Source: Pseudomonadota bacterium (GTDB lineage Bacteria; Pseudomonadota; Alphaproteobacteria; Acetobacterales; Acetobacteraceae). From it: DNA of 64,000 nt. Positions 15,913 to 52,384 of this stretch are shown here, one piece after another. The translations under genes were made by a program, and so were the position numbers. The DNA lies in contig JAJZVV010000006.1 of assembly GCA_021845595.1 (NCBI GenBank), positions 84,361 to 148,360 on the forward strand, written 5' to 3'. Below the pieces are notes generated by a model that worked only from the letters and a program-made list of their open reading frames with translations, had not been told where the DNA came from and did not search any database. How positions within the stretch are numbered: position 1 is the first letter of the stretch; every line of letters starts with the position of its first letter.

Positions 15913-16103
15913 CGCCGGCCTTCAGGCCCGACCCCACCCACGGCCGTCACGGAATTTCCACCACGAGCACGGACGCTAACAGATTTATTGTGTGCGGACC
16001 CACCAAGACAATCGACTTGAGTATATTGACTATAGCAGTAGCTGAATTATGGGTTTGTTCATAAATCCAGTCTGTGATAATCGTACCTGAAGGGGAACCC
16101 CAG

Positions 16104-34387: not shown

Positions 34388-35317
34388 TCAGCCGATCACC
34401 GCCATCATTTCCGCCCATTCCCGCTTCGACAGGCCGCTCGCCTCCTGCGCCACGGTCTCGCCGGCCAGCATCCGCCGCAGCACGGCCAGCATCGGCGCGG
34501 ACAGCGTCGCCGCGCCGAGCCGATAGTCGCGAAACGCCTGATGCGCCGCCGGCACCCAGGCTTCGGTGATGCCGAGCATCGCCTCGGCATAGGCGCGGAT
34601 TTCGTACTGGGCGTGAGCATCGGCGCGCAGGGCGAGGAAATGAAATAGATTGTGTAAGTCGATCTTCCAGTACCACTGGGTATAGGTATTCAGCGTCAGG
34701 TTCATCCGCGCCAGTTCGCGCGCCAGCCCGGCGCGGGCCGGATCGCGCGGCGCGCCGTCGGCGCCCTCGTTGAGCATGGCGAGGTAATGGTCGTGGCAGC
34801 GCGCCGCGTCGGCGCGCAGCAGATCGAGCACCTCGGCCGCTTCGGCGCCCTCGAGCACGGCACCGCGCCCCTGCCGGTTGGTCTCGGATTGCGCGGCGAG
34901 ATGCTCGGGCGCGGGAAGGTAGAACTCCCGGTCGAGGATGGAATAGCGCGCCGAATATTCGTTCACGTTGGCGGTGCGATGGCGGATCCACTGCCGCGCG
35001 ACGAAGATCGGCAGCTTCACGTGCAGCTTGATCTCGCACATCTCGAACGGCGTCGAGTGATGGTGGCGCATGAGGTAGCGGATCAGCCCGGTATCCTCCG
35101 AGACGCGGCGCGTGCCGCGGCCGTAGGAGACCCGCGCCGCCTGCACGATGGCGCCGTCATCGCCCATGTAGTCGATGACGCGGACGAAGCCGTGGTCGAG
35201 CACGGCGATCGGCCGGTGCAGCATGGCCTCCAGCGCCGGCACGGTGGGGCGGCTCGTCTCGGCGCGGCGATCGCGCGCGGCGGCGATCTCGGCCTCCTGG
35301 TCCGCGGTCAGCTCCAT
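34388..35317 (-). CDS. thyX: FAD-dependent thymidylate synthase
   Basis: The ThyX motif [14 protein letters not shown] is present, along with HSTPFE. ATG 35317 (MELTADQ) is preceded by AAGGAG. Confidence 0.93.
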
Positions 35318-35359
35318 CGTGCGCTCCTTCCCTTGCCAGGCGGGATTGCCTATATGTCG

Positions 35360-35715
35360 AAAGCCGGTCCGCCGGCTATGGCGATAAACGGTGCGTGGAA
35401 TAAGCGTAGTGGACCCGGGGGCAGTACCCGGCGCCTCCACCAGATCGCATCGGTTCCAGCCCCGCGCCCTTCAGGGCGCCGGGGCCGGGCCGCTGCGCAG
35501 ACGGGGGCGAAACAGGCTCGACACGCGTGGTAAAGACCCATCTTTCGCTCGGCATGGTTCCGCCGTTATCGGGCCATATCACAGGTGCCAACGACAACAT
35601 GGCGCTCGCTGCCGCTGCATAAGCGGTAAGCGCGGTCCGGGGGGCACCGGGCAACAGAAGCCCCCCACTTCACCGCTTCGGCGGCCGGGACTGACACGCC
35701 GTCCTGCGCCGGGGG
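35360..35715 (+). ncRNA. ssrA: Two-piece (circularly permuted) alphaproteobacterial tmRNA gene; ends approximate
   Basis: The acceptor piece has a T-arm (CCGGG-GGCAGTA-CCCGG) and a 3' strand CGCCUCC-A-CCA, ending at 35442. A ~60-nt intervening segment follows. The coding piece starts with GGGGGCGAAACAGGCUCGAC at 35503, whose first 7 nt pair with CGCCUCC, including a G3:U wobble (the Ala identity element). The tag ORF is GCC AAC GAC AAC ATG GCG CTC GCT GCC GCT GCA TAA (35587-35622), giving ANDNMALAAAA. The 5' and 3' gene boundaries were not resolved. Confidence 0.8.
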
Positions 35716-35773
35716 CGCTTCCCCGCCCGCGTGGCACGCGCTATGTCAGCTTCGATCGGCAGAAGGGCCTGGC

Positions 35774-36268
35774 ATGGAAGACGACGGGGAACAGCAGCCG
35801 GAAAGCCTGCTGCCGTATCAGGAATGGACCGAGGAAGCGCTGCGGCTGGTGGTGGTCCGCGCGCTCCAGCACGCGGCCCGGCACGGGCTGCCCGGCGGGC
35901 ATCATTTCTACCTGAGCTTCCGCACCGACCAGCCGGGCGTGGTGATCCCGGCGCGGCTGCGTGCGCAATATCCGCGCGAAATGACCATCGTGCTCCAGCA
36001 CCAGTTCTGGGACCTGGTGATCGACGAGCCGGCCGGCCTGTTCAGCGTCGGGCTCTCCTTCGGCGGCACGCCCGCGAGCCTGACGATTCCCTTCGCGGCG
36101 ATCAGCGCCTTCGCCGATCCCGAGATCCGCTACGGGCTGCGGTTCACGATCGCCGAGCCGGACGCGGAGCCGGAGGCCGCGCCCGCACCCGAGACGCCGG
36201 CGGAGACGCCGACGCCGCAGATCGTCAGCCTCGACGCCTTCCGCCGGCGCACCCCGCCGAAGGAGTAG
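35774..36268 (+). CDS. sspB: ClpXP adaptor SspB (alphaproteobacterial type)
   Basis: 164 aa. HHFYLSFRTDQPGVVIPARLRAQYPREMTIVLQHQFWDLVIDE, GLSFGGTPASLTIPFAAISAFADP, an acidic/Pro linker, and a C-terminal IVSLDAFRRR (ClpX-binding-tail-like) match the SspB family pattern. Confidence 0.8.
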   Translation: MEDDGEQQPESLLPYQEWTEEALRLVVVRALQHAARHGLPGGHHFYLSFRTDQPGVVIPARLRAQYPREMTIVLQHQFWDLVIDEPAGLFSVGLSFGGTPASLTIPFAAISAFADPEIRYGLRFTIAEPDAEPEAAPAPETPAETPTPQIVSLDAFRRRTPPKE

Positions 36269-36332
36269 CGCTTCTCCGGGAGTAGCGCCGCTTCGCTTGC
36301 CTCGCCGGGCCGGGCACGCCATCCTCGCGCCC

Positions 36333-36971
36333 ATGACCGCATCGTCTGCCCCTCCCTCCCGCTTCGCCCGCGTCCGCCGCCTGCCCGAGCGCGGCGCCTA
36401 TGATCGCGCCACCATCGACGCCATCCTCGATGCCGCGCCGCTCTGCCATATCGGCCACGTCATCGACGGGCGGCCGGTCGTGATCCCGACCATCCATTGG
36501 CGGGTCGGCGATACGCTCTACTGGCACGGCAGCAGCGCCAGCCGCATGCTGGAGGCGACCCCCGGGGCCGAGGTTTGCCTCACCGCGACGCTGCTGGATG
36601 CCTACGTCCTCGCCCGCTCCGGGTTCAACCATTCGGTCAATTACCGCTCGGTGATGTGCTTCGGCCGTCCACGCGCGCTCGCCGCGGCGGCGGAGAAGGA
36701 AGCGGCGCTGGAGCACTTCATCGAGCATCTGTTTCCCGGCCGCTGGCCCTCCCTGCGCCCGCCCACGGTGCAGGAACTCAAGGCCACCGCCGTGCTGTCG
36801 ATGCCGATCGACGAGGCCTCGGCGAAGCTGCGCACGGACGGGCCGCACGACCCGGAGGCCGACCTCGCCTGGCCCGTCTGGGCCGGGCTCCTGCCCGTGT
36901 TCACGATGCGTGGCGCGCCGATGCCCGATGCCCACACCGCGCCCGGAACCGAGCCGCCCCAGGGATGGTGA
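36333..36971 (+). CDS. Pyridoxamine 5'-phosphate oxidase-family (FMN-binding split-barrel) protein
   Basis: ERGAYDRATIDAILDAAPLCHIGHVIDGRPVVIPT...LYWHGSSASRML...DAYVLARSGFNHSVNYRSVMCFG is the typical Pyridox_ox_2-type flavin-nucleotide-binding pattern. The start is taken at ATG 36333. Confidence 0.7.
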   Translation: MTASSAPPSRFARVRRLPERGAYDRATIDAILDAAPLCHIGHVIDGRPVVIPTIHWRVGDTLYWHGSSASRMLEATPGAEVCLTATLLDAYVLARSGFNHSVNYRSVMCFGRPRALAAAAEKEAALEHFIEHLFPGRWPSLRPPTVQELKATAVLSMPIDEASAKLRTDGPHDPEADLAWPVWAGLLPVFTMRGAPMPDAHTAPGTEPPQGW

Positions 36972-36988
36972 GCGCGGCATGGTGAATC

Positions 36989-39184
36989 TTGGGGCGCGCC
37001 GCCCGCCCGGTGGCGATCCCCGGCTCTAATCGGGCCCAACACGACCACCGCCGGAGGCAAGCCACGCCGGACGCGATCCCCTTCCTCCCGGCCCTCGCCT
37101 TGATCGTTCCGGGGCTGTTGGCCGTCGCTGCCGTCGAGGCCGCGCGGGCCGGGTTCGCGCGCGGGCCGGCGGCGCCAGGGCGAGCGGCCAATGCGGATCG
37201 CGGGCGGGGTGCGCGCGCCAGCCGGCCCGCCGCGAACGGCGCGCGCCGCGCCCGCATCGCCATCGTCACGCTCTGCCTCGCCGGAGCCGCGCTGGCCCTG
37301 GCGTGCCTGCTCGCTGCCCCCGCCCCGGCGAGCCTGCGGGTGCCATTGGGCGAGCCCGGCTTCGGTCTGGTGCTGGCGCTCGATGGGCTCTCCTGCTGGT
37401 TCATCCTCATTCTGTTCGCCGTCGCCGCTGCCGCCGTCGCATCATGCTCCGAAGCGAGCGCCGCGCCGCTCGCCGCCTTCGTCGCGGCCCTGGCGCTGAC
37501 CGTGCTCGCCGGCGACGGAGTGGCGTTGGTCCTCGGCCTCGAACTCACCGCGGTGACCGGCTGGGGCCTGATGCAGGCGGACACAGCCGCCGACGGGCCC
37601 GAACCGGCCCCCCGCGCGGGCGCGTCGCCGGCGTTCATCGGCATGGCCGTGCTCGGCGCCCTCGGGGTGCTCGGCGCCATCGTCCTGCTCGCCCCGGCGC
37701 TGCCCTCCGGCTTCCCGGACCTGCGCTTCGCCAGCCTGCGCGGCACGGCGCCGGCCGGCTGGAGCGAGATCGCGGTGCTGGCGCTGGCGCTGTTCGGCGC
37801 CGGCAGCCTGGCCGGCCTGGTGCCGCTGCATCTGTGGCTGCCGCCGTCTCTCAGCGCCGCACCCGTCCATGCCGGCGTGCTGATGGCCGGGGCGATGTTG
37901 CCCGTCGCCCTCTACACGCTCCTCCGCCTGCTGCTCGATCTCGCCGGCAGCGCCCCGCCGCTCGGCTGGGGCGTCGCGCTCGCCATGCTCGGGGGCTTCG
38001 CGGCGCTGCTCGGCGCGCTGCGGTCGGTGATCGAGACCGATTTGCGGGTGCTGCTCGCCTGCATCGCCATCGAACAGACCGGGCTGGTGACGATCGCCAT
38101 CGGCGTCGTCCTCATCGGCCGCGCGGCGGACCTGACGTCGCTGGCCAGCCTGGCGCTGGGGGCGGCGCTGCTGCTCGGTCTGACGCAGGGGCTGCTCTCG
38201 GCGCTGCTGCTGCTGGCCGCCGGCGCGGTCGAGCAGGGCGCGGGGACGCGCCATCTGCATCGTCTCGGCGGGTTGGCCCAGCGCATGCCGATGACCACGC
38301 TCTGCGCGCTGGTCGGCGCCGCCGGGCTCGCGGCGATGCCGCCGGGGCCGGGCTTCGCGGCGGCGTGGCTGCTGTTCCAGGCGCTGATCGGCGCGGCACG
38401 TGCCGGCGGGGTCGCGACCCAGCTCGCGCTCGCCGCCGCCGCTGCGCTGCTCGCCCTCGCCCTCGCCCTCGGCACCGTGGCCGCGCTGCGGCTGGTCGGC
38501 GTCGGCTTCCTCGGCCGCCCGCGTACCCCGCGCACCGCGGCGGCGGAAGACCCGGGGAGCGTTTCGCGGCGGGTGATGCTGGTGCTGGCCACGCTGGCGC
38601 TGATCATCGGCCTCGTCCCCGGGTTGCTGCTGCGCCTCGCCGGGCCGGCCTTCGCCGCGCTGCGCACCGAGCCGATGGGCGTGCGCGCGGCGCTCGCCGG
38701 TCTGCGCGCCCATCCCGAGCAGCCCGGCTACGCGCCGCTCGCCATCGCCGCGCTGCTCGCCGGCCTCGCCGCCATCGCATTCGTCCTGCTGCGCCGGGCC
38801 GATCCCGTCGGGCAGCAGCGCGGCCCGGCCTGGGATGGCGGCTTCGCGGCCCCGCCGCCATGGCTGCCGTTCGGCGATCCGCTGACCCAGTACGGCGCCG
38901 CATCCTTCTCGCAGATCCTGCGCCGCACGATCGGGGCCAGGCTCCTCGCGGCGCGCGAGACGGTGACCACGAAGCTGCCGGGCGAGACCAGCGCGGCACG
39001 GTTCCTGGTCACGACCCGCGATCCCGCCGCCGCCTGGCTGCTCGCCGCCATCGCCGCCGCCCGCCTGTGGCTGTGGCAGCGGATCGACCGGCTGCGGCCG
39101 TTCCCCCTTGGCGGCGCGCCGGCGCTCACGCTCGCCGCGCTGGCGGCGCTGCTGGCGGTGCTCGCCTGGCGAGGTCTGCGATGA
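36989..39184 (+). CDS. HyfB/HycC/NuoL-like antiporter-type membrane subunit (divergent)
   Basis: 731 aa and polytopic. It carries the proton_antipo_M-like block LFGAGSLAGLVPLHLWLPPSLSAAPVHAGVLMAGAMLPVALY and the TM5-like LGLELTAVTGWGLM. The track start is a TTG only 18 nt after the preceding stop, so the true start is uncertain. Confidence 0.7.
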   Translation: MGRAARPVAIPGSNRAQHDHRRRQATPDAIPFLPALALIVPGLLAVAAVEAARAGFARGPAAPGRAANADRGRGARASRPAANGARRARIAIVTLCLAGAALALACLLAAPAPASLRVPLGEPGFGLVLALDGLSCWFILILFAVAAAAVASCSEASAAPLAAFVAALALTVLAGDGVALVLGLELTAVTGWGLMQADTAADGPEPAPRAGASPAFIGMAVLGALGVLGAIVLLAPALPSGFPDLRFASLRGTAPAGWSEIAVLALALFGAGSLAGLVPLHLWLPPSLSAAPVHAGVLMAGAMLPVALYTLLRLLLDLAGSAPPLGWGVALAMLGGFAALLGALRSVIETDLRVLLACIAIEQTGLVTIAIGVVLIGRAADLTSLASLALGAALLLGLTQGLLSALLLLAAGAVEQGAGTRHLHRLGGLAQRMPMTTLCALVGAAGLAAMPPGPGFAAAWLLFQALIGAARAGGVATQLALAAAAALLALALALGTVAALRLVGVGFLGRPRTPRTAAAEDPGSVSRRVMLVLATLALIIGLVPGLLLRLAGPAFAALRTEPMGVRAALAGLRAHPEQPGYAPLAIAALLAGLAAIAFVLLRRADPVGQQRGPAWDGGFAAPPPWLPFGDPLTQYGAASFSQILRRTIGARLLAARETVTTKLPGETSAARFLVTTRDPAAAWLLAAIAAARLWLWQRIDRLRPFPLGGAPALTLAALAALLAVLAWRGLR

Positions 39185-40140
39185 CCCTGCTCAGCGGCCT
39201 CGTCGCCCAGGCCCTGCACCTCGCGCTCATGCTCGGGCTGGCGCCGGGATTAGCCGGGTTCGTCCGGTGGCTGAAAGCGCGGCTGCTGCACCGGGCCGGA
39301 CCGCCGCCGCGGCTCGCCTATCGGGACCTGCTGCGGCTGATGCGCAAGCAGACGGTGCGCCCGCAGAGCAGCTCCTTCGTCTTCGCCGCCGCGCCCGTCG
39401 TCGCCACGGCCGCCAGCGTGCTCGCCGCGGCGCTGGTTCCATCCTTCGCCCGCGGCATGACGACCGCGCCGCTCGCCGACCTGCTGCTGATCGCGGGCCT
39501 GTTCGCCCTGGCGCGGAGCGCGCTGGTGCTGGGCGCGATGGATGCGGGCAGCGCCGTCGGCGGCATCGGCGCCAGCCGCGTCGCCGCCTACGCCGTCTTC
39601 GCCGAGCCGGCGACGCTGCTCGTCGTCGTGACGCTCGCCGTTCTCCTCGGCACCACCAATCTCGACCAACTCACCGGGCTGCTCCAACCCGGCGGGGTCG
39701 CAGCGCACGCGCCGCTCGGCCTCGCACTGGCCCCGCTGGTGGCGAGCGCCCTGGCCCAGGTCGGGGTCGGGCCGATCGCAGGCGCAGCGAGCGCGGCCGA
39801 GCCGGCGATGCTGTTCGAGGCCCTGACGCTCGAACATGGCGGGCGTGACCTGGCGCTGCTGGAGTTCGGCGCGGCCGTGCGGCTGATCACCTGGTTCAGC
39901 CTGATCGCCGCGCTGTTTCTGCCCGCCTTCACCGCCCCCGCCGCCGCCTTTCCGCTCGGTTGGCTGATCGGCCTCGCCGCCTGGGCGGTCAAACTGACCG
40001 TGCTGGCCGGGGCGGTGGCGCTGGCCGAGGCCGCGATGGCGCGGCTGGGCGTTGCGCGGGTCCCCGGGGTCCTCGGTGCGGCCATCGTGCTGGGCCTGCT
40101 GGCCGCGGCACTCGTCGCCCTCGGCGAGGGGCTCGCCTGA
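39181..40140 (+). CDS. HycD/HyfC/NuoH-like membrane subunit
   Basis: The gene starts at ATG 39181 (ATGA overlap with the upstream stop). MTLLSGLVAQALHLALMLGLAP..ARLLHRAGPPPRLAYRDLLRLMRKQTV, MDAGSAVGGIGASR and LAEAAMARLGV align block-for-block with my recollection of E. coli HycD. It is the 3' part of track ORF 37303-40140. Confidence 0.8.
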   Translation: MTLLSGLVAQALHLALMLGLAPGLAGFVRWLKARLLHRAGPPPRLAYRDLLRLMRKQTVRPQSSSFVFAAAPVVATAASVLAAALVPSFARGMTTAPLADLLLIAGLFALARSALVLGAMDAGSAVGGIGASRVAAYAVFAEPATLLVVVTLAVLLGTTNLDQLTGLLQPGGVAAHAPLGLALAPLVASALAQVGVGPIAGAASAAEPAMLFEALTLEHGGRDLALLEFGAAVRLITWFSLIAALFLPAFTAPAAAFPLGWLIGLAAWAVKLTVLAGAVALAEAAMARLGVARVPGVLGAAIVLGLLAAALVALGEGLA

Positions 40141-40763
40141 TGGCCATCCCGCTCACCCAGCCGCTGGCGCCCCTGTTCGGCAGCGTGGCGCTGATGGCCG
40201 GCCTGGTGCTGATGACGCGCCGGCGCGCTGGCGCGCTGATCGGCGCGGGCGCGGTCCAGGCCTGGGCGGCGGCCGGCGTCGCAGCCGTACGCGGCGGCCT
40301 CGCCGGGGACGCGGGCCTCGTCGCCGCCGCGCTGATCACCCTGGCGGCGAGCGGCGTGGCGATCCCGATCGCGCTCACACTCATCACCCGCCGGCGCGAT
40401 GCGGCGCCGGTGTCGGCGCCGGGAAGCATGGGGCTCGGCGCCGCGCTGGTCGGGCTGGCCGCGCTGGCGGTCCCGGGCGTGGCCATTGCCGGCGGTGCGC
40501 TGACCCGCGAGAGCCTGGCGGTCGCCATCGCAGTGGGGCTGCTCGGCGCGCTGCTCGTCGCCATGCGCCGCAGCCCGCTCGCGCAACTCGCCGGGGTTCT
40601 CTCGCTCGGCAACGGGGTGATCCTGGCCGCCACGCCGGGCGTGCCGCTGATCGCAACGGTCCCGCTGGTAGCGCTGGCACCGGCGGCGCTGCTGCTGGGT
40701 GCCATGGGGCTGGGTGCGGTCGATCTGGACGCCGGCGCCACGCCCGGCTCGCCGGGGCCATGA
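40140..40763 (+). CDS. HyfE/NuoK-like small membrane subunit
   Basis: 207 aa starting at ATG 40140 (TGATG overlap). It is a multi-TM Ala/Leu/Gly-rich protein. The block LAVAIAVGLLGALLVAMRRSPLAQLAGVLSLGNGVILAA resembles the HyfE block ...QRNILRQIFGYCLMENG... Confidence 0.6.
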   Translation: MAIPLTQPLAPLFGSVALMAGLVLMTRRRAGALIGAGAVQAWAAAGVAAVRGGLAGDAGLVAAALITLAASGVAIPIALTLITRRRDAAPVSAPGSMGLGAALVGLAALAVPGVAIAGGALTRESLAVAIAVGLLGALLVAMRRSPLAQLAGVLSLGNGVILAATPGVPLIATVPLVALAPAALLLGAMGLGAVDLDAGATPGSPGP

Positions 40764-42166
40764 ACCCGCCGCTCGCCGCGCTGGTGCCTTGCATCCCGTT
40801 CGCTGCGGCGATCGCGCTCGGCCTGATCGGCGATCGGCGATTGGGCGGCCGGCGGATCGGCGTCTGGGTCAATCTCGCCGCCGCCGGCGCGACGTTTCTC
40901 GCCGCCCTCGCCTTCGCCCTTGAGCCGCCGGCGTCCTCGGCCCTTCTGCTGGCCGATCCGCTGGCGCGGCATTTCGCCCTGCTCGCCGGCTTCGTCGGCC
41001 TCACCGCTTCCTGCGCCGAGTTCGGGCAGGCGGACCCACACGACCTCGCCCACGCCCTCGGCCAAGGCTTCCTCGGCGCCGTTCTGGCGGCGCTGATGTC
41101 GAACAGCCTCGTCGTCACCATCGCCGCGGCCGAGGCCGCTTGCCTCGCGCTCGCCGCCGCCGCGGCCCTGCCGCTGACGCCAGAGGCGATGCGGGCGGCC
41201 TGGACCGGCACCGTCACCGCGGGCCTCGCCGGCGGCCTCGCCCTGTTCGGCGTGATCCTGCTCGCCCTCGCGGCCCTGCCGGCACCAACCGCGCCGGCGC
41301 CAACCGCGCCGGCGCTGACCTGGAGCGCGCTGCCCCAGGTCGTGGCCGCCGGCCAGGGCGGCCTGCTCAGCCTCGGCTTCGTGTTCGTCCTCGTCGGCGC
41401 CGCGGCGATGGCGATGCTGGCGCCGCTGCATCTATGGAGTTCGGGGCGGGACGAAGCCGCGCCGGCGATGACAGTGCCGCTGCTGACGACCCCGTTGATG
41501 ACGACCCCGTTGATGACGACGCTGGCGATCACGGTCATTCTCCGGCTGCGCCAGGCGGTCGCGGACACTGTCGACGCGGCTCTGCCCGGGCCGGCGGTTC
41601 TGGCGCTCGGCCTGCTGGCGCTGCTGATCGCGGCGCTGGCACTGGGGCGGCAGCGCGACGCGCGGCGCCTCGTCGCCGTCGCCACGGTGGGACAGGCCGG
41701 CCTCGTGGCCGTCGCGATCGGGCTCGGCACCAGCGCGGCCGTGTTCGCCGGCGTGCTGCACCTGACGCTCGCGACGCTGGTGCTGACCGCGCTGCTGTCA
41801 CGCGCCAGGACGGCCGAGGCCGGCGTGACGGTCGCCGCCGGCCTGGTCGCGCTGGCGGGGCTGCCGCCCTTCGGCCTTTTCTCTGGCATCGTTCTCATCG
41901 CCGCGGCCGCCGCGCACGCCGCGCCGCTGCTGCTGGCCCCGCTCGGCGCGGCTCTCGGCCTCAGTGCCTGGGCCATGCTGGCGCGGCTGCCGGCGCTCCG
42001 GGCGCCAGGCGCGGCGACGAGCCCGACCGCGCCGCGCGCGGCAGGCTGGGCACACGTGAGGATCATCGTGCCCTGGCTGCATCTGGCGCTCACCGCGCTG
42101 CTCGGCCTGGCCATGCCGATCCCGCTGGTGCGCTGGTTCGCCACCATCGCCGGCAGTCTGGGATGA
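40760..42166 (+). CDS. HyfF/NuoN-like antiporter-type membrane subunit (divergent)
   Basis: 468 aa starting at ATG 40760 (ATGA overlap). It is polytopic, with the block GFVFVLVGAAAMAMLAPLHLWSSGRDEAAPAMTVPLL resembling the G.GxKxxxxPxHxWLP motif. It contains two internal 15-nt tandem duplications. Confidence 0.65.
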   Translation: MNPPLAALVPCIPFAAAIALGLIGDRRLGGRRIGVWVNLAAAGATFLAALAFALEPPASSALLLADPLARHFALLAGFVGLTASCAEFGQADPHDLAHALGQGFLGAVLAALMSNSLVVTIAAAEAACLALAAAAALPLTPEAMRAAWTGTVTAGLAGGLALFGVILLALAALPAPTAPAPTAPALTWSALPQVVAAGQGGLLSLGFVFVLVGAAAMAMLAPLHLWSSGRDEAAPAMTVPLLTTPLMTTPLMTTLAITVILRLRQAVADTVDAALPGPAVLALGLLALLIAALALGRQRDARRLVAVATVGQAGLVAVAIGLGTSAAVFAGVLHLTLATLVLTALLSRARTAEAGVTVAAGLVALAGLPPFGLFSGIVLIAAAAAHAAPLLLAPLGAALGLSAWAMLARLPALRAPGAATSPTAPRAAGWAHVRIIVPWLHLALTALLGLAMPIPLVRWFATIAGSLG

Positions 42167-43674
42167 GCGCCGCCGCCGCCATCATCCGTGCCGGCGCGGC
42201 CGCCGACCAGCGCCCCTGGCCGCGTCATGCGCTGAGCCGCGACCGCTGGCAGGCGATGGCGGCGGCGCTGGGCGCGGCGGATGCGCCCTCGCTGCAAGGA
42301 GTGTGGGCCGAGGCCGAACGCGTCCACGCCTTGTTCCTCGATGCCGGATCGCCGCTATCGGCCTCGGTCGAGATCGCTGGCGGGACCTACCCGGCGCTGT
42401 CGCCGCACTGCCCCGCCGCGTCCTGGTTCGAGCGCATGATCCACGATCTGTTCGGCCATGCCGCCGAGGGTGGGCGCGATGTGCGGGCGTGGCTCGACCA
42501 CGGCGCCTGGGCCACCGCCGCCCCGCTCGGCCCACGCCAGGCCGCGTTGCCGCCGCGCGTCGGCGCCCCGGAGCCGCCGGAATTCCTCCTCGCCGAGGGT
42601 GAGGATCTGAACCAGATCGGGCTCGGGCCGGTCGCCGGCGCCATCGCCGAGCCGGCGCATCTGCGGCTCACCGCCCAGGGCGAGACGCTGGTGCGGCTGG
42701 AGGTTCGGCTCGGCTACGCCCACAAGGGCACGCTCGGGCTGATGCGGGGCACGCCGCCACGCGCCGCGGCACGGTTCGCCGCTCGCCTGTCCGGCAGCGC
42801 GACCGTGGCGCACGGGCTGGCCTATGCCCACGCCGTGGAGGCGGCGCTCGGCGTGGTCCCGCCGCCGCGCGCGGTGGCGCTGCGGGCGGTGATGGCGGAG
42901 CTGGAGCGCATCCGGTCCCATCTCGATGCCGCCGCCGCGATCCTCGCCGAGGCCGGCGCGGCCTTCCTGGAGACGCGGTTCGGCTGGCATCGGGAAGCGA
43001 TGCACGAGGCCGCCGGCCGCGCCTTCGGGCACCGGCTGATGATGGACGGCGTCGCGCCCGGCGGGCTCGCCACCGATCTCGCCGCCGACGGCGCCGCCGC
43101 GATCCGCGCCGCGCTGGAGGCGCTCGCCGCCGAACTGCCGGATCTCGTGCGCAGGCTGGACCGCTCGGCGAGCCTCGGCACCCGCATGGCCGGGATCGGC
43201 CGCCTCGCGCCCGACCTCGCCGCCGGGTTCGGCGCTTCCGGACCGGTTGGGCGTGCGTCCGGGCGTGGCGGCGATGCGCGCCTCGTGCCGGGCTATCCGC
43301 CCTACCCGGCGCTCGGCCTCGAGGTCCCGACCCGCGCCGGGGGCGATGTCGCGGCGCGGCTGCGCGTGCGCCTCGGCGAGGTGCCTCAGAGCACGCGGCT
43401 GCTGCGCGCCCTGCTCGACGCGCTACCCGATGGCACCATCGCGACCGCCCTGCCGGCGGCGAGCGGCGAGGGACTGGGCGTCGCCGAGTCCAGCCGGGGC
43501 ACGGTCTGGCACTGGGTGCGCATCGAGGGCGGCCTCATCGCCGCCGCCTTCGCCCGCGACCCCGACTGGCTGCACTGGCCGCTCCTGGAAGCGGCCATGC
43601 GCAACGGCATGCTCGAAGACCTGCCGCTCTGCGCCGCCTCCTTCGGCCTCACCAGCTCGGGAGTGGACCTGTGA
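42163..43674 (+). CDS. Fused NuoC-NuoD / HycE(HyfG)-like large subunit lacking the [NiFe] cysteine ligands
   Basis: 503 aa starting at ATG 42163 (ATGA overlap). The NuoC-like part reads YPALSPHCPAASWFERMIHDLFGHAAEG. The large-subunit part reads GLGPVAGAIAEPAHLRLTAQGETLVRLEVRLGYAHKG. The L1 position reads RLSGSATVAH instead of RxCGxCxxxH. The C-terminus SFGLTSSGVDL replaces (S)FDPCxxCxxR. Confidence 0.8.
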   Translation: MSAAAAIIRAGAAADQRPWPRHALSRDRWQAMAAALGAADAPSLQGVWAEAERVHALFLDAGSPLSASVEIAGGTYPALSPHCPAASWFERMIHDLFGHAAEGGRDVRAWLDHGAWATAAPLGPRQAALPPRVGAPEPPEFLLAEGEDLNQIGLGPVAGAIAEPAHLRLTAQGETLVRLEVRLGYAHKGTLGLMRGTPPRAAARFAARLSGSATVAHGLAYAHAVEAALGVVPPPRAVALRAVMAELERIRSHLDAAAAILAEAGAAFLETRFGWHREAMHEAAGRAFGHRLMMDGVAPGGLATDLAADGAAAIRAALEALAAELPDLVRRLDRSASLGTRMAGIGRLAPDLAAGFGASGPVGRASGRGGDARLVPGYPPYPALGLEVPTRAGGDVAARLRVRLGEVPQSTRLLRALLDALPDGTIATALPAASGEGLGVAESSRGTVWHWVRIEGGLIAAAFARDPDWLHWPLLEAAMRNGMLEDLPLCAASFGLTSSGVDL

Positions 43675-44201
43675 CGATCTGGCAGCGGTTGCGGCACACG
43701 CTGCGCCACGGGCCGGCGACCCTGCCGGCAGCGGCGCCATCGGCGGAGACGGCGGCGGCGCTGGCGGCGCGGCTGGACGCGGCGGCGCAGCGCCGGCTCG
43801 GGCGCAGCCTCGCCATCCGCCATGTCGGCGCCGGCGGCTGCGATGGCTGCGAGCTCGAACTGCGCGCGCTGACCGGCATCGTCTACGACCTCGAACGGTT
43901 CGGCCTGCGCTTCGTCACCAGCCCCCGCCACGCCGACATCCTGCTCGCGACCGGCCCGCTCACGCGCAGCATGGCCGAGGCGCTGGCGCGCACGCACGCG
44001 GCCATGGGCGAGCCGAAATGGGTCGTCGCGGTCGGCGACTGCGCCATCGACGGCGGCGTGTTCAAGGGCAGCTACGCCTGCCTCGGCGGCATCACGACCC
44101 TGCCCGTCGATCTCGTCATCCGCGGCTGCCCGCCGACGCCGTGGCAGGTGCTGGAGGGGCTGCGGGCGCTGATCGAGGCCAACGCGGCGCCGGCGCGCTG
44201 A
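43671..44201 (+). CDS. HycG/HyfI/NuoB-like small subunit ([4Fe-4S] ligands retained)
   Basis: 176 aa starting at GTG 43671 (GTGA overlap). GAGGCDGCELE, VAVGDCAIDGGVF and IRGCPPTP give the four-Cys pattern of the proximal/N2-type cluster of the NuoB/HycG family. Confidence 0.85.
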   Translation: MTIWQRLRHTLRHGPATLPAAAPSAETAAALAARLDAAAQRRLGRSLAIRHVGAGGCDGCELELRALTGIVYDLERFGLRFVTSPRHADILLATGPLTRSMAEALARTHAAMGEPKWVVAVGDCAIDGGVFKGSYACLGGITTLPVDLVIRGCPPTPWQVLEGLRALIEANAAPAR

Positions 44202-44214
44202 GCGGACCCGGACG

Positions 44215-44631
44215 ATGCTGCATCTCGTCAAACTCGCCGTCGGCATCCGCGATGTGGCGCATCTGGCCGCGGTGCAGCAGGCGCGGGCGGCTGCCGATCC
44301 GCCGCTGCGGCACCTGACCCGCAACAATCCGAGGCGCGCCAGCGAGATCGTCGCCGGCGGCTCGATCTACTGGAGCATCGCCGGCACCCTCCAGGTACGC
44401 CAGCGCATCCTGGCCATCGAACCGGCCACGCGCCCGGACGGCAGTGCCTGCACCGCGCTGGTCCTCGAACCGGCGCTGGTGCGCGTCGTCGCCCAGGCGA
44501 TGAAACCCTTCCAGGGCTGGCGCTATCTGCGCCCCGAGGATGCGCCGCCCGACCTCGCCGAGGCCTCCAGCGACGCCGACGGCATGCCGCCTTCCATGCA
44601 GGCGGCCCTGCGCGCGCTCGGCCTGCTATAG
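44215..44631 (+). CDS. DUF1489 family protein
   Basis: MLHLVKLAVGIRDVAHL...HLTRNNPRRASEIVAGGSIYWSIAGTLQVRQRILAIE matches my recollection of the conserved alphaproteobacterial DUF1489 pattern. It starts 13 nt after the small-subunit stop. Confidence 0.7.
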   Translation: MLHLVKLAVGIRDVAHLAAVQQARAAADPPLRHLTRNNPRRASEIVAGGSIYWSIAGTLQVRQRILAIEPATRPDGSACTALVLEPALVRVVAQAMKPFQGWRYLRPEDAPPDLAEASSDADGMPPSMQAALRALGLL

Positions 44632-45501
44632 GCGCCCGCCCGGCCCGTCCGGGTCGGCCATCGCCAGCACCGCCGCGGGCGAGAACCCGGCGGCGCGCAG
44701 CGCGCGCAGGCTCGGCGCCCCGTCGCGCTTGGCCAGCCGCCGTCCGGCTGCATCCGCGAGCAGCCGATGGTGCGCGTAGCGCGGCGCCGGCCAGCCGAAC
44801 AGGGCCTGAAGCAGCCGGTGCAGGTCCGTCGCCGGCTGGAGGTCCTCGGCCCGGGTGACCAGGGTCACGCCCTGGAGCGCATCGTCGTGGGTGACGCAGA
44901 GATGGTAGCTCGCCGGCATGTCCTTGCGCGCCAGCACGACATCGCCGAAGCGCTCCGGCGCGCAGACGCGGCGCCCCTCGCCCAGCTCCTCGAAATCCAA
45001 CGGCGCCGCCAGCGTGGCGAGCGCGCGGCCGATGTCGAGCCGGAGCGCATAGCGTTCGCCCGTCTCCAGCCGGCGCCGGCGCTGCGCGGGCGCCAGCGCG
45101 CGGCAGGTGCCCGGATAGACCGCGCTGCCATCCGGCGCGTGCGGCGCCGCACCCGCTGCTGCCACCTCGCGCTGGATGTCGGCGCGCGTGCAGAAGCACG
45201 GGTAGAGCAGGCCGCGCGCGGCGAGGGCATCGAGCGCGGCGGCGTAGTCCTCCATGTGCGCGGACTGCACCCGCACCTCGCCGTCCCAGTGGAGCCCGAG
45301 CCAGGCGAGGTCTTCGCGGATCGCGGCGGCGAACTCGGCGCGGCAGCGGCTGGCATCGATATCCTCCAGCCGCAGCAGAAACCGCCCGCCCGCCCCCCCA
45401 CCGGCCCGCCGCGCCGCGCGCCAGGCACGGAGCGCGGCATGGGCGTGGCCGAGATGGAGCAGTCCGGTCGGGCTCGGGGCGAAGCGGGTGACGAATTCCA
45501 T
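44626..45501 (-). CDS. gluQ: tRNA glutamyl-Q(34) synthetase
   Basis: MEFVTRFAPSPTGLLHLGHAHAAL (HIGH motif) and LLRLEDID are present. It is a truncated GluRS-like catalytic domain of 291 aa with no anticodon-binding domain. Confidence 0.88.
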   Translation of the reverse strand: MEFVTRFAPSPTGLLHLGHAHAALRAWRAARRAGGGAGGRFLLRLEDIDASRCRAEFAAAIREDLAWLGLHWDGEVRVQSAHMEDYAAALDALAARGLLYPCFCTRADIQREVAAAGAAPHAPDGSAVYPGTCRALAPAQRRRRLETGERYALRLDIGRALATLAAPLDFEELGEGRRVCAPERFGDVVLARKDMPASYHLCVTHDDALQGVTLVTRAEDLQPATDLHRLLQALFGWPAPRYAHHRLLADAAGRRLAKRDGAPSLRALRAAGFSPAAVLAMADPDGPGGRL

Positions 45502-45665
45502 CCATGCGGCCTGTGCGAAGCGCCGAGCATAGCGGTTCCCCGCGCGCCGGCGACAGATCGCCCGCCCCCCCGCGCGAGCGGGCCGATCAAGCCAACGCCC
45601 GGAAGCGGACCGTGCCCTGGAAACGATAGGGCTGGCGATCCGCCCCGCTTTTCAGCAGCAAGGAT

Positions 45666-45790
45666 AGCAAGCGTAGGGTGGGGTGCCTTCGCACCCCACC
45701 GCCTGTGCCGGTCGCCATGCTGCTATCTGCCGACCTGCCGAAAGTTGGTGGGGTGCGAAGGGCACCCCACCCTACGCTTGCTACGCTTGC
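45666..45790. repeat. Inverted pair of REP-like palindromic elements plus a 9-nt duplication
   Basis: agcaagcgtagggtggggtgccttcgcaccccacc (45666-45700) and its inverse ggtggggtgcgaagggcaccccaccctacgcttgct (45747-45781) form the pair. Each contains its own GGTGGGGTGC/GCACCCCACC hairpin. They are followed by ctacgcttg-ctacgcttg. Confidence 0.8.
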
Positions 45791-48810: not shown

Positions 48811-48986
48811 TTTCTTTTCGTCGTCGGCCACCGCGTCCCCCCCCCGCCTGGCCGGTCGCACCGGCCGCGTTTTCCCCCCGGAAATCTGGCACAGCGGGCG
48901 GACGGCGACAATCGGGGCGTGTGCCGGCCCGCTCGGGTGGGCCGCGATTCAGCCAACGCCCTGAAGCGGGCGTCGGCGTCGCCCCG

Positions 48987-50096
48987 CTACTCCACGACGA
49001 TGCGCGGCGCCGGCGCGGCGGCGGCGAGCGCGGCTTCGGTCGCCTCCCACACCCGCTGGGCCAGGGCGGCGAAGGCGCGGGCGGCCTCGCTCTCCGGGGC
49101 GGCGGCGACGATGGGGGTGCCGGCGTCGGAGGCGGTGCGGATGTCGAGCAGCAGCGGCACCTCGCCGAGGAACGGCGCGCCGAGCCGCGCGGCCTCCGCG
49201 CGCGCGCCGCCATGGCCGAAAATCTCGGCGCGGTGGCCGCAGTTCGGGCAGCAATAATAGCTCATGTTCTCGACCAGCCCGAGCACGGGGACATTGACGC
49301 GCTCGAACATGCGCACCCCGCGCCTTGCATCGAGCAGCGCGATGTCCTGCGGCGTCGAGACGATCACCGCGCCGGTCAGCGCCACGCGCTGGGCCATGGT
49401 CAACTGCGCGTCCCCGGTGCCGGGCGGCATGTCCACCACCATCACGTCGAGCTTGCCCCACTCGGCCTGGCCCATCATCTGCTCCAGCGCGCCCATCACC
49501 ATCGGGCCGCGCCAGATCATCGGCGTTTCCTCATCGACGAGGAAGCCGATGGACATCGCCTTCAGCCCCCAGGCTTCCAGCGGGATCATCCGCTCCTGGC
49601 CCTTGGCGCCGCGCACCTCCGGCTTGCGCGCCAGCCCGAGCATGCGCGGCAGGCTCGGGCCGTAGATGTCGGCATCGAGCAGCCCGACGGCGAGGCCCTG
49701 GCGGGCCAGGGCGACGGCGAGATTGACCGCGACGGTGGATTTGCCCACCCCGCCCTTGCCCGAGGCGACGGCGATGATCGCGCGCACGCCGGGCAGCAGC
49801 GCGGCGCGCTGGCCGGGCGCCGGCGGCGGCTTCGCGGGCTCGGGCGGCTTGTGGGCGGTGAGGATGACGGCGGCGTTGGTCACCCCCGGCTGGCGGGCGA
49901 GCAGCGCCTCCGCCTCCCGGCGCAGCGGCTCCAGCGCCGCGGCGCGGGCGCGCTCGACGCTGAGCGCCACCTGCACCAGCCCGCCGCGCACCTCGATGCC
50001 CTCGACCATGCCGGCGGCGACGATGTCCTGCCCGCTCGCCGGGTCGCGCAGAGTGCGCAGCGCCGCGCGCAGTGTCTCCTGTGTGGGGTTGCTCAT
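48987..50096 (-). CDS. apbC: Mrp/NBP35-family iron-sulfur cluster carrier ATPase
   Basis: An N-terminal DUF59-like region is followed by the deviant Walker A AVASGKGGVGKST and a CPNCGH motif. The start is ATG 50096 (MSNPTQETL). Confidence 0.92.
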   Translation of the reverse strand: MSNPTQETLRAALRTLRDPASGQDIVAAGMVEGIEVRGGLVQVALSVERARAAALEPLRREAEALLARQPGVTNAAVILTAHKPPEPAKPPPAPGQRAALLPGVRAIIAVASGKGGVGKSTVAVNLAVALARQGLAVGLLDADIYGPSLPRMLGLARKPEVRGAKGQERMIPLEAWGLKAMSIGFLVDEETPMIWRGPMVMGALEQMMGQAEWGKLDVMVVDMPPGTGDAQLTMAQRVALTGAVIVSTPQDIALLDARRGVRMFERVNVPVLGLVENMSYYCCPNCGHRAEIFGHGGARAEAARLGAPFLGEVPLLLDIRTASDAGTPIVAAAPESEAARAFAALAQRVWEATEAALAAAAPAPRIVVE

Positions 50097-50216
50097 GCGC
50101 TTGCCAGCCTTTCCTGTCCGGTCGATAACCATCCGCCGCTCCGGCTCTCGATATGCATCCGGCCGGCGCGCACGCCAATGGCCCCGCCCTGCGGCGCGGA
50201 TACAGGAGGAGCGGCG

Positions 50217-51428
50217 ATGTCTTGGAACAGCGGCGGGAATGCCGGCGGCTCGGGGCCGTGGGGCCCGCCCGGGCGGCCGAACGGCCCGCGCCCGCCGCCA
50301 CCGGGCCGCGGCGGCCCGCCCTTCCCCGACCTCGACGAGTTCCTCGCCTGGCTGCGCTCGACCTTCGGCGGCGGCGGAGGAGGCCGGCCGGGCGGGCTCG
50401 GGCCGGCGAGCTTCGGCGGCGGCCGCGGCCTCGGCCTGCTCGTGGTCGGGCTGATCGGCGTCTGGCTCGCCAGCGGCTTCTTCCGCGTCCAGCCGGACCA
50501 GCAGGGTCTGGTGCTGCGCTTCGGCGCCTTCGTGCGCAGCGCCGGGCCGGGGCTGAACTACCACCTGCCCTGGCCGATCGAGACGGTCGAACGGCCGGCG
50601 GTGACGCGCATCAACCGGATCGAGATCGGCTATCGCTCGCGCGGACGCGACGAGATCACCGGCGAGATGCGCCCGCCGCGCGATGTCGGCGCCGAAAGCC
50701 TCATGCTCACCGGCGACGAGAACATCATCGACATCAATTTCACCGTGTTCTGGCACATCAGCAACGCCGCGGATTTCCTGTTCGGCGTGCGCAACCCGGA
50801 GGAAACGGTGAAATCCGCCGCCGAAAGCGTGATGCGCGAGGTGATCGGCCGCACGCCGATCCAGCCGGCGCTGACCGCGGCGCGCGCGCAGATCGAGACC
50901 GCCGTGCACAAGGGCACGCAGGCGATCCTCGACCGCTACGGCGCCGGCGTCGAGATCACCCAGGTGCAGCTCCAGCGCGTCGATCCGCCGGCCGCGGTGA
51001 TCGACAGTTTCCGCGACGTGCAGCGCGCCAATACCGACGCCGAACGCATGCGCAACGAGGCCGAGGCTTACCACAACGACATCGTCCCGCGCGCGCGCGG
51101 CGATGCGGCGCGCATCGTCGCCGAGGCGGAGGGCGCGCGGCAGGCGGCGATCGCGCAGGCCACCGGGGAGGCGCAGCGCTTCGACAGCGTGCTCGCCGCC
51201 TACCGCGCGGCCAAGGACGTGACATTGCGCCGGCTCTATATCGACGCCATGCAGAGCGTGGTCGAACACGCCCAGACGGTGGTGGTGGACCCGGCGCTGA
51301 AGGGCGTACTGCCGCTGCTGAACCTCGTGCCCGAGCCAGCGCGGGCTCCTTCGCCGGCTCGGGCGGAAGTGCCGGCGCAACCCTCCGCTCCGCCGCCCGC
51401 CACGGCCCAACCGGGAAAAGCGCCATGA
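50217..51428 (+). CDS. hflK: FtsH protease modulator HflK
   Basis: A Gly/Pro-rich N-terminus and one TM segment precede the SPFH/band-7 domain (FRVQPDQQGLVLRFG..., MLTGDENIIDINF). ATG 50217 is preceded by AGGAGGA. Confidence 0.92.
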   Translation: MSWNSGGNAGGSGPWGPPGRPNGPRPPPPGRGGPPFPDLDEFLAWLRSTFGGGGGGRPGGLGPASFGGGRGLGLLVVGLIGVWLASGFFRVQPDQQGLVLRFGAFVRSAGPGLNYHLPWPIETVERPAVTRINRIEIGYRSRGRDEITGEMRPPRDVGAESLMLTGDENIIDINFTVFWHISNAADFLFGVRNPEETVKSAAESVMREVIGRTPIQPALTAARAQIETAVHKGTQAILDRYGAGVEITQVQLQRVDPPAAVIDSFRDVQRANTDAERMRNEAEAYHNDIVPRARGDAARIVAEAEGARQAAIAQATGEAQRFDSVLAAYRAAKDVTLRRLYIDAMQSVVEHAQTVVVDPALKGVLPLLNLVPEPARAPSPARAEVPAQPSAPPPATAQPGKAP

Positions 51429-52384
51429 ACCGGCTGCTGCCCTTCGGCGCCATTCTGCTGCTGCTGGCCGCGATCGTCGCCGGCTCCAGCCTGTTCACCG
51501 TCGCCCAGACCGAGCAGGTGCTGATCACCCAGTTCGGCCAGCCGATCCGCGTCATCACCGTGCCGGGCCTGCATGCCAAGCTGCCGTTCGTGCAGACCGC
51601 GATCGCGTTCGACCGCCGGCTGCTGGATTTCGACGTCGCCAGCGAAGAGGTCATCCTCGGCGACCAGCGCCGGCTGATCGTGGACAGTTTCACCCGCTTC
51701 CGCATCGTCGACCCGCTGCGCCTGTTCCAGGCCGCCGGCCCGACCGAGGGCGTGATCGAGGCCCGCCTCGGCGCCGTCGTCTCCGGCAGCCTCCGGCGCG
51801 TGCTCGGCAACGAAAGCCTGCTCGACGTGCTCTCCGCCCAGCGCGACCGCATCATGAGCCGCATCCGCACCGAGGTGAACGCGGAGATGCAGGGCTTCGG
51901 CCTCGCCGTCGAGGATGTCCGCATCCGCCGCGCCGACCTGCCGGAGGAGAATACCGAGGCCATCCTCAGCCGCATGCAGTCCGAACGCGAGCGCGTCGCC
52001 CGCCAGGCGCGCGCCGAGGGGGCCGAGGCCTCCGCGCGCATCCGCGCCGGGGCGGAGCGCGAGCGCACGGTGCTGCTGGCCGACGCCCGCGGCACGGCGG
52101 AGAAACTGCGCGGCGAAGGCGAGCAGAAAGCGATCGGCATCTATGCCGCGGCCTTCGGCAAGGACCCGACCTTCTTCACCACCTGGCGGACGCTGGAAGC
52201 CTATCGCGCGGGCTTCGGCGCCGGGACGAGCCGCCTGGTGCTCTCAGGCGATGCCGACTTCCTGCGCCTGCTGCGCCACGCCCCAACCGCGCACGAGCCG
52301 ACGGCTCAGGATGTGGGCGCCGCCCAGCCATCCTCGCCAGGCTCGATCGACATCCCCGAACTCGGCTCGACCCAGACCAGGTGA
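51425..52384 (+). CDS. hflC: FtsH protease modulator HflC
   Basis: There is an ATGA overlap with hflK. The SPFH domain is present (FTVAQTEQVLITQFG..., VEDVRIRRADLP). The last ~26 codons overlap the convergent CBS gene. Confidence 0.9.
   Translation: MNRLLPFGAILLLLAAIVAGSSLFTVAQTEQVLITQFGQPIRVITVPGLHAKLPFVQTAIAFDRRLLDFDVASEEVILGDQRRLIVDSFTRFRIVDPLRLFQAAGPTEGVIEARLGAVVSGSLRRVLGNESLLDVLSAQRDRIMSRIRTEVNAEMQGFGLAVEDVRIRRADLPEENTEAILSRMQSERERVARQARAEGAEASARIRAGAERERTVLLADARGTAEKLRGEGEQKAIGIYAAAFGKDPTFFTTWRTLEAYRAGFGAGTSRLVLSGDADFLRLLRHAPTAHEPTAQDVGAAQPSSPGSIDIPELGSTQTR

Follow-up and report, generated by a model that had tools for sequence, protein, structure and literature searches.

What does a membrane complex do when its large subunit has the build of a [NiFe]-hydrogenase and none of the cysteines that hold the metal? 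The question is raised by a 64-kb stretch of an Acetobacteraceae genome (contig JAJZVV010000006.1, positions 84,361 to 148,360; hereafter the window), in which the open reading frame (ORF) 42163-43674 (+) encodes a HycE-like protein. We find that this protein is very probably EhrL, the large subunit of an Ehr (energy-converting-hydrogenase-related) complex encoded by an operon of six genes, ehrABCDLS (Table 1), and that the operon departs from canonical members of its family in the pocket of EhrL and in the membrane subunits, with the iron–sulfur site of the small subunit, EhrS, kept under selection. On balance we lean towards a non-hydrogenase membrane Fe-S module, a non-pumping derivative of Ehr.

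The ORF translates into 503 aa plus a stop codon. Its start is confirmed by the ATG at 42163, which overlaps the upstream stop codon (ATGA), and by homologues of 495-510 aa that begin with the same Met. The protein has exactly two Cys, residues 83 and 490. Pfam recognises Complex1_49kDa (PF00346, 3.9e-31), NiFeSe_Hases over residues 193-254 (PF00374, 3.3e-10) and, at the N-terminus, a Complex1_30kDa (PF00329)/NuoC-like piece. Among the sequences of the PDB, phmmer ranks Escherichia coli HycE first (7z0s_E, 3e-45, 26% identity), followed by Pyrococcus furiosus MbhL (2.2e-29), Thermus thermophilus Nqo4 (1.4e-27) and, much weaker, P. furiosus MbsL (5e-15), and a profile of 48 EhrL family sequences matches HycE at E = 2.4e-67. 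A search with the C-terminal 74 residues gave weak matches to group 1 hydrogenases on the 'PRGxxxHW' block and no alignment to MbsL. The AlphaFold2 model computed from the family alignment (mean predicted local distance difference test, pLDDT, 88.2; predicted template modelling score, pTM, 0.91), in which the tail is weak (residues 499-503, pLDDT < 50), superposes in Foldseek on HycE (7z0s_E) with a template modelling (TM) score of 0.91 and on E. coli NuoCD with ~0.85. The protein is of the NuoC-HycE/NuoD type with a predicted HycE fold, and the initial annotation, which had given the same ORF, the same two cysteines and a conserved fold from the letters alone, agrees with these results.

Both ligand motifs of the group 4 hydrogenases are missing from EhrL. 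In place of RxCGxCxxxH (L1) the protein has RLSGSATVAH, onto which phmmer aligns 'RvCGiCgfaH' of HycE from R208 to H217. In place of DPCxxCxx(R/H) (L2) its C-terminus reads SFGLTSSGVDL, and the 48-sequence profile lays 'SLDPCYSCTD' of HycE on S493-F-G-L-T497-S-S-G500-V-D502. The register of both segments is secure because HycE has the same residues at the anchors R208, H217, S493 and D502, which vary little or not at all in the EhrL family. The replacement of all four Ni-Fe cysteines, which had been proposed from an alignment by eye, is therefore reproduced by phmmer (S210, A213) and by the family profile (T497, G500). Other hydrogenase-type blocks are kept besides R208, H217 and D502, namely E163-P164-x-H166 and R445-G446 of the 'PRG' block; no family member differs at R208, H217, R445-G446 or D502. 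The initial annotation was also right that there is no C-terminal extension for HycI-type processing, since the protein stops at L503, which aligns to the cleavage-site Arg of HycE; we take this Arg to be the residue after which HycI cleaves.

The substitutions are shared widely. In 121 sequences (the query and the 120 closest clusters at 90% identity) no Cys occurs at any of the four ligand positions: residue 210 is S or A, 213 and 497 are S, A or T, and 500 is G in 121/121. Cys-less substitutions are also seen in most of the 150 best and more diverse representatives taken at 50% identity; the full CCCC set occurs in 12 of these 150, only at ~32-35% identity to EhrL (e.g. Carbobacillus HycE). 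EhrL is thus almost certainly unable to hold a Ni-Fe centre through canonical Cys ligands, and almost certainly not a hydrogenase. The NiFeSe_Hases match would speak for a true [NiFe]-hydrogenase, its ligands hidden by an error in the alignment or in the sequence, a reading that we consider next to inconceivable. Neither of the two cysteines lies at the site, so that the CxxC pairs elsewhere in the protein that could have overturned the initial annotation do not exist; the same replacements recur through the query, its closest clusters and most of the diverse representatives; relatives with four cysteines are found only at the distance given above; and hyp genes are absent from the window, as are formate dehydrogenase genes, with no hycI nearby. 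The Cys count and the homologue survey effectively refute this reading, and we rejected it.

The composition of the operon places EhrL in a known family. Besides a large subunit homologous to those of the group 4 [NiFe]-hydrogenases and to NuoD (by Pfam, the HycE match and the TM score) that lacks both CxxC motifs, it encodes a NuoB-like small subunit with its [4Fe-4S] cysteines and, in the order ehrABCDLS, a NuoH-like, a HyfE-like and two NuoL/M/N-like subunits, which are the features by which Ehr complexes are recognised. EhrS has its four cysteines (C57, C60, C124 and C153) in CxxC, GxC and GCPP motifs that align with those of HycG and MbhJ, and 33-34 of 35 family members and every derived locus checked retain them. 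The operon order of E. coli hyf is B-C-E-F-G-I, and ehrABCDLS mirrors it minus the ferredoxin-type subunits. The name Ehr reportedly dates from work on Geobacter in 2005, and Marreiros et al. reportedly surveyed the complexes in 2013. The Cys-less large subunit is their defining trait, and their function is still unknown (PMC6349859, PMC10284858, PMC12342949, PMC7894505, PMC6728331, PMC10432482). The Geobacter annotation comprises EhrA (NuoL-like), EhrC (HyfE-like), EhrL and EhrS (PMC7894505), and the Mycobacterium tuberculosis cluster Rv0081-87 has been put in the same family (PMC6728331).

The loss of the cysteines is a known family trait, and the ORF is a correct rediscovery of it in a new member. 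What the initial annotation had observed stands; it is not a singular event, and the Ehr family trait went unrecognised there. Taken alone, the four-Cys loss matters mainly for annotation. Several homologues (P0034, P0102, P0158 and others) carry the labels 'hydrogenase large subunit', 'Ni,Fe-hydrogenase III large subunit', 'NADH-quinone oxidoreductase subunit C' or 'hydrogenase expression protein HypE', and mislabelled Cys-less homologues of this kind would inflate the counts in surveys of H2 metabolism and should not be counted as H2-metabolising enzymes. The family is widespread, being found in Nitrospira, Geobacter, M. tuberculosis, Burkholderia, ammonia-oxidising archaea and others.

Nearly all of 37 related loci carry this set of six genes in an unchanged order; the loci belong to Acetobacteraceae, Betaproteobacteria, Nitrospirota, Acidobacteriota and Leptospirales. 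The closest public loci, L001 and L002, are Acetobacteraceae metagenome bins with 87-93% EhrL identity; the next, at ~55-60%, include Limobrevibacterium and Rhodovastum, and EhrL identity is down to 36-37% in L030, a Nitrospirota locus that likewise carries all six genes. Among the EhrL cluster names returned are Burkholderia, Thermodesulfovibrio, Methanoregula and Thermoplasmatota, and no Geobacter or Mycobacterium name. Clustering of the ORFs that flank the 37 loci, with the recurrent ones identified by Pfam, revealed nothing conserved family-wide. A conserved redox partner was looked for in these flanks and dismissed, the recurrent ORFs being a phosphodiesterase, an epimerase, PTS-EIIA/helix-turn-helix regulators, an esterase and CoxE-VWA, and the window neighbours Pyridox_ox_2, DUF1489 and gluQ are common to the closest relatives or to few loci only.

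Is the former metal site, then, a quinone site of the complex I type? NuoD is the top NCBIfam match of EhrL, far under the equivalog cut-offs (156.8 vs 360 and 122.9 vs 459). In an ungapped stretch of the alignment to Nqo4, where the Nqo4 residue number equals the query number minus 124, Tyr87 falls on G211, a Gly that is invariant as in hydrogenases, and His38 falls on A162, or on P164 if a two-residue loop difference is allowed, with no His at the aligned positions 162-164. The β1-β2 loop that carries His38 has the hydrogenase length in EhrL and keeps the HycE-like E163-P164-x-H166. The NuoD His/Tyr pair, which had been put forward as a possible occupant of the pocket, is not there, and to judge from these alignments EhrL is not a standard complex I quinone module (Q-module). 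We therefore rejected a complex I NuoD assignment, on the NCBIfam cut-offs, the missing Tyr and His and the operon content. An uncoupled or alternative quinone reductase, in which a NuoCD-type Q-module would be fed by ferredoxin or flavodoxin, overlaps with the reading that we favour. It could draw on the NuoB-, NuoD- and NuoH-like subunits with their N2-type cluster, on the rank of NuoD in NCBIfam, on the cavity that small residues at the old Ni-Fe site would leave beside the cluster, and on a gene for an FMN-binding Pyridox_ox_2 protein that lies on the same strand 15-18 nt upstream of the operon. In contrast, the NuoD scores fall well short of the cut-offs, the two quinone ligands are gone from a loop of hydrogenase length that retains EPxH, and the flavoprotein gene is beside no more distant Ehr locus (the contigs of L001 and L002 end at ehrA), so that this alternative appears improbable.

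In canonical Ehr complexes the former Ni-Fe site has a composition of its own. From Acetobacteraceae to Nitrospirota and Acidobacteriota, EhrL shares the set RLSGD(S/T)TVAH, N252, D256 and a C-terminal SFN(C/L)SYSG(V/H)DL; we defined it on loci L003, L005, L006, L009-L012, L014, L016, L020, L022, L025 and L030-L032, at the columns of window residues 158, 210-213, 252, 256 and 495-500. The consensus of the 121 sequences, R-L-S-G-D-(S/A/T)-T-V-A-H and S-F-N-(C)-S-Y-S-G-V-D-L, agrees with it, and D212 is conserved in 112 of them, N495 in 109, Y498 in 90 and G500 in 121. This canonical pocket, rich in hydroxyls and carboxylates, looks like a real selected site and not a degenerate scar.

The window EhrL departs from this consensus by D212 to S, N495 to G, C496 to L and Y498 to S, and the polar pocket residues H158, D212, N252, D256, N495 and Y498 are all replaced in a derived subgroup to which it belongs. 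Fifteen of the 184 EhrL columns conserved at 93% or above have changed in the window clade, D212, N495, H150, G160, G165, F167, N252 and D256 among them. In a neighbour-joining tree of EhrL, the window clade groups with L004, L015, L017, L018, L021 and L023 on long branches that arise within the canonical Acetobacteraceae sequences. Within the 150 diverse representatives, 78 are complete, Cys-less and fail a strict test of five pocket residues; in many of these the pocket residues vary widely, and some miss the canonical set by a single residue. By these sequence comparisons the window operon belongs to a derived, fast-evolving alphaproteobacterial Ehr subgroup.

The membrane subunits have changed with the pocket. 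In a canonical set of ~20 loci across several phyla, the invariant residues of EhrA (numbered from TTG 37100) are E148, K237, H244, K268, D314, K316, E325, H359, H363, K367 and E422, those of EhrD are E125, K217, H224, E233, D300, K302, H334, H338 and K342, and those of EhrC are E157 and E173. These columns are homologous to the Lys/His/Glu relay of NuoL/M/N, MbhH and HycC. Mutagenesis of complex I has shown that the NuoL/M/N-type Lys/His/Glu residues are essential. In the window and in L001 and L002, EhrA carries K237L, K268P, H359L, H363Q, K367S and E422A, EhrD carries K217M, E233A, H338A and K342L, and EhrC carries E157G and E173T. The Lys-to-Pro and HxxxK-to-QxxxS changes in EhrA are also seen when it is aligned separately, by phmmer, to HycC and MbhH. 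The columns are replaced as well in L021, L017 and L041 to L044, and the relay is also missing in the tree-mates of the window clade wherever their membrane genes could be read. An intact relay in the antiporter-like and HyfE-like subunits, which is a functional expectation outside the published definition of Ehr, is thus absent from the window.

These replacements bear directly on whether the complex could still be a functional, energy-converting Ehr of the canonical kind, in which redox chemistry at the EhrS-EhrL junction drives ion translocation through other residues or water wires. Such a complex would explain six intact, translationally coupled genes under purifying selection, the retained cluster ligands of EhrS, and the retention of the Glu of transmembrane helix 5 (TM5) in EhrA and EhrD and of all the family-conserved acidic residues of EhrB (D99, D120, E141, E206, E212 and E282). 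Set against this, 10-12 residues that are invariant across phyla in canonical Ehr are now L, P, Q, S, A or M, the ratios of nonsynonymous to synonymous substitution rates (dN/dS, ω) of ehrC and ehrD are 2-5 times those of canonical pairs, and other derived loci have membrane subunits that Pfam does not recognise or have lost subunits. We regard continued pumping as rather unlikely.

Selection on the operon was measured by comparing the window with L001 and L002 by YN00 and NG86, with gluQ as a flanking control (Table 1); for six canonical locus pairs, NG86 gives 0.05-0.29 for ehrC and ehrD and 0.06-0.24 for ehrL. Because ω is well below 1 for all genes, the operon is under purifying selection and is not a pseudogene. 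EhrS and EhrL bear most of the constraint, and selection on the membrane arm has been relaxed without becoming neutral. Amino acid identities within the clade follow the same trend (EhrS 93-98%, EhrL 87-93%, EhrD 72-90%). These data also bear on the suspicion that the operon is a decaying, functionless remnant whose ORFs persist since stop codons are rare in a genome of 72-77% GC. Long chance ORFs are indeed what high GC yields, and the relaxed ω of the membrane subunits, the long branches and highly variable pocket residues of the derived subgroup and the loss of subunits in some derived loci would all fit decay. A remnant would not, on the other hand, be expected to show ω well below 1 in every gene, with ehrL and ehrS as constrained as housekeeping gluQ or only about twice as relaxed, an EhrS that is nearly identical across the clade with its four Cys kept, intact overlapping start/stop junctions, conserved gene order with contiguous in-frame matches in L001 and L002, and a GC content at third codon positions (GC3) of ~0.92 in ehrA, the sole ehr gene passing the filter, like that of neighbouring genes. 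A pseudogene was rejected on dN/dS, and a functionless remnant is, in our estimate, quite unlikely.

The non-pumping Fe-S module, towards which we lean, would be unable to make or split H2 and would no longer be a redox-driven ion pump of the type of complex I or of the membrane-bound hydrogenase (MBH). Selection would still be maintaining the junction of EhrS, EhrL and EhrB, an Fe-S module anchored in the membrane. As the NuoI-like cap is missing, a soluble carrier would probably dock straight on EhrS and swap electrons with it. The module might then hand these electrons on to a partner in the membrane or cytoplasm, or sense that partner, with no pumping of the canonical kind. Any specific downstream role would be tentative at most.

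Several points weigh against this interpretation. Since EhrA and EhrD keep the TM5 Glu and EhrB its conserved acidic residues, some ion movement may take place by a non-canonical route. The transmembrane segments are Ala/Leu-rich and of low complexity, which leaves room for alignment errors in single columns, and dS at a GC3 of ~0.9 depends on the method, as the difference between NG86 and YN00 shows. The derived loci group together in the neighbour-joining tree, and the joint loss of pocket and pump may be a single historical event and not a replicated correlation; only three genomes sample the window clade, and in two of these the contig is cut short. Of the genome itself we have seen the 64-kb window, and hyp genes, a canonical Ehr paralogue or complex I may lie elsewhere in it. 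Finally, electron exchange or sensing at EhrS is something that we infer, because no Ehr complex has shown a function.

The derived state, with pocket and relay lost and the Fe-S site kept under selection, appears not to have been described previously in the literature searched. It is conceivable, though we hold it only tentatively, that the derived alphaproteobacterial Ehr form a distinct, repurposed class of membrane-anchored [4Fe-4S] modules with neither a polar active site nor ion pumping, with redox sensor or uncoupled electron-entry point as possible new roles. If so, the joint loss of the antiporter relay and the EhrL pocket (H158, D212, N252, D256, N495 and Y498) would mark the pocket as the site of catalysis or ion binding that powers the pump of canonical Ehr. 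The comparative pattern, in which canonical complexes combine the polar pocket with an intact relay whereas derived ones have lost both and kept the Fe-S cluster, provides a handle on what Ehr complexes do: it gives targets for mutagenesis in canonical Ehr, and the derived subgroup offers natural 'pump-dead' variants with which the role of Ehr can be tested.

Other derived loci extend the picture of variation in the family. In L041 to L044 the membrane genes are mostly unrecognised by Pfam, subunits are missing, or a second, canonical-looking cluster lies nearby, and the four cysteines are kept in every EhrS examined of these loci and in L040. L041 (2-4861) has ehrA-ehrB-ehrL-ehrS only, with ehrC and ehrD absent, and L044 (3956-12078) has an Oxidored_q6 protein of 502 aa, about three times the usual length of EhrS. 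L042 (GCA_027371955.1, DAHXKA010000142.1) carries two ehr-like clusters on one contig, one on the minus strand with membrane subunits recognised by Pfam and the other a derived ehrA-ehrB-ehrL with no adjacent ehrS, a pair which hints that derived forms arise as paralogues. L038, where ehrA and ehrB are frame-split, could suggest pseudogenes, but its contig is labelled as of 2x coverage and was not used. The reverse of the window pattern is seen in Micromonospora solifontis (L029, NZ_RJLN01000063.1), where an EhrS-like protein (~5411-5770) has all four [4Fe-4S] cysteines replaced (AGSDGSDE, GTDA, PGNPASP) and the EhrD-like subunit keeps the full Lys/His/Glu relay.

Table 1. The ehr operon, the two ligand-site segments of EhrL and dN/dS (ω) of the window against L001 and L002
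Feature	Coordinates	Strand	Evidence	ω, YN00	ω, NG86
ehrA, HyfB/HycC/NuoL-like antiporter-type membrane subunit	36989..39184	+	Pfam Proton_antipo_M 2.3e-23; PDB HycC 7z0s_C 4e-33, MbhH 1e-27	0.19	0.34
ehrB, NuoH/HycD/HyfC-like membrane subunit	39181..40140	+	Pfam NADHdh 1e-22; ATG overlaps ehrA stop (ATGA)	0.14-0.21	0.26-0.48
ehrC, HyfE-like small membrane subunit	40140..40763	+	same position in related loci; overlap TGATG	0.22-0.27	0.47-0.65
ehrD, HyfF/NuoN-like antiporter-type membrane subunit	40760..42166	+	Pfam Proton_antipo_M 5.8e-07; overlaps ehrC stop (ATGA)	0.26	0.48-0.50
ehrL, large subunit: NuoC-like N-terminal domain fused to HycE/NuoD-like domain, without Ni-Fe ligands	42163..43674	+	Pfam, phmmer, family profile, AlphaFold2/Foldseek	0.12	0.24-0.29
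L1-equivalent, R208-L-S-G-S-A-T-V-A-H217	42784..42813	+	Cys1 to S210, Cys2 to A213; alignments to HycE, MbhL, Nqo4		
L2-equivalent, S493-F-G-L-T-S-S-G-V-D-L503, C-terminus	43639..43671	+	Cys3 to T497, Cys4 to G500; profile alignment to HycE		
ehrS, NuoB/HycG/MbhJ-like small subunit	43671..44201	+	Pfam Oxidored_q6 6e-28; MbhJ 1.7e-28; GTG overlaps ehrL stop (GTGA)		0.17-0.19
gluQ, flanking control				0.09-0.12	0.19-0.22

ehrL is the fifth of the six close-packed genes, and stop and start codons overlap at all five junctions. The start of ehrA is uncertain (TTG 36989, GTG 37010 or TTG 37100), and the sole PDB match of ehrD is MbsH (6u8y_H, 9e-08). A scan of 35500-45700 for promoters and terminators gave nothing above chance. 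The 64-kb window contains no NuoI/HycF- or HycB-type ferredoxin, and the motif CxxCxxCxxxCP occurs in no frame. The operon stands in an alphaproteobacterial housekeeping neighbourhood (pyrG, secG, thyX, alpha-tmRNA, sspB, gluQ, ligA, recN, ftsK and others). Upstream, the Pyridox_ox_2 gene (36297-36971, +) encodes an FMN-binding split-barrel protein, like pyridoxamine-5'-phosphate oxidase, and ends 15-18 nt before the ehrA frame; its product is a conceivable flavin electron partner, and the gene is not beside Ehr in more distant loci. A DUF1489 gene (44215-44631, +) directly 3' of ehrS also adjoins ehrS in L001, L002 and L004, is on the opposite strand in L012 and L027, and is absent at the other loci.

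Elsewhere in the window, 16074-17888 (+) is the only low-GC stretch (0.59 vs ~0.72). The product of its 604-aa ORF has no Pfam match, abounds in Gly, Thr, Asn and Ser and repeats 'GG..N..I/V' segments; it has the look of a repeat protein, secreted or of the beta-helix type, that was acquired horizontally. A two-piece (permuted) alphaproteobacterial transfer-messenger RNA (tmRNA) gene at 35324-35669 (+) lies directly 5' of sspB (35774-36268, +), which encodes the SsrA-tag adaptor; because the long ORF 34388-35440 on the opposite strand overlaps the tmRNA, the true start of thyX should lie further in. At 48921-52384 (+), long ORFs in two frames overlap, and each has a Band_7/SPFH domain in its C-terminal part; they are probably two adjacent SPFH genes whose ORF calls extend too far.

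Among the closest known systems, E. coli HycE of formate hydrogenlyase 1 (FHL-1, 7z0s) is the top match of EhrL in sequence and structure, with the NuoC-like N-terminal fusion, EPxH, R208, H217, PRG and D502 in common, and the hyf operon of hydrogenase-4 has the gene order given above. In contrast to these, the window has neither the Ni-Fe cysteines nor the C-terminal peptide, and no HycF/HyfH (NuoI-like), HycB/HyfA ferredoxin, formate dehydrogenase or hyp/hycI genes nearby. The P. furiosus MBH (6cfw) and the membrane-bound sulfane sulfur reductase (MBS/Mbx, 6u8y) share the homologous core of L, J and M type and an antiporter-like subunit. MBH keeps its Ni-Fe site, whereas MBS is a precedent for a hydrogenase-derived complex that abandoned H2 chemistry; both differ from the window in having a NuoI-like subunit and Mrp-type modules with an intact relay. 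An assignment to MBS/Mbx itself does not fit, as the window has no ferredoxin-type motif or gene, the operon has six subunits only, and the match to MbsL is weak (5e-15). The Q-module of complex I (NuoCD/Nqo4/NDUFS2) has the same fold, has likewise lost the Ni-Fe ligands, and has an N2-type cluster in the partner subunit, but EhrL lacks the Tyr87/His38 ligands and scores under the NuoD cut-offs, and the window has no NuoA, E, F, G, I or J genes. With the Ehr complexes of Geobacter sulfurreducens (GSU0739-45), Nitrospira/Nitrospirales and M. tuberculosis (Rv0082-Rv0087), finally, the window operon shares the Cys-less large subunit, the NuoB-like Fe-S small subunit, the NuoH-like, HyfE-like and two NuoL/M/N-like subunits, and their names and order, the likeness to Geobacter and Mycobacterium being taken from published descriptions. 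It differs from canonical Ehr in the replacement of the EhrL pocket residues D212, N252, D256, N495, Y498 and H158 and of the relay in EhrA, EhrC and EhrD.

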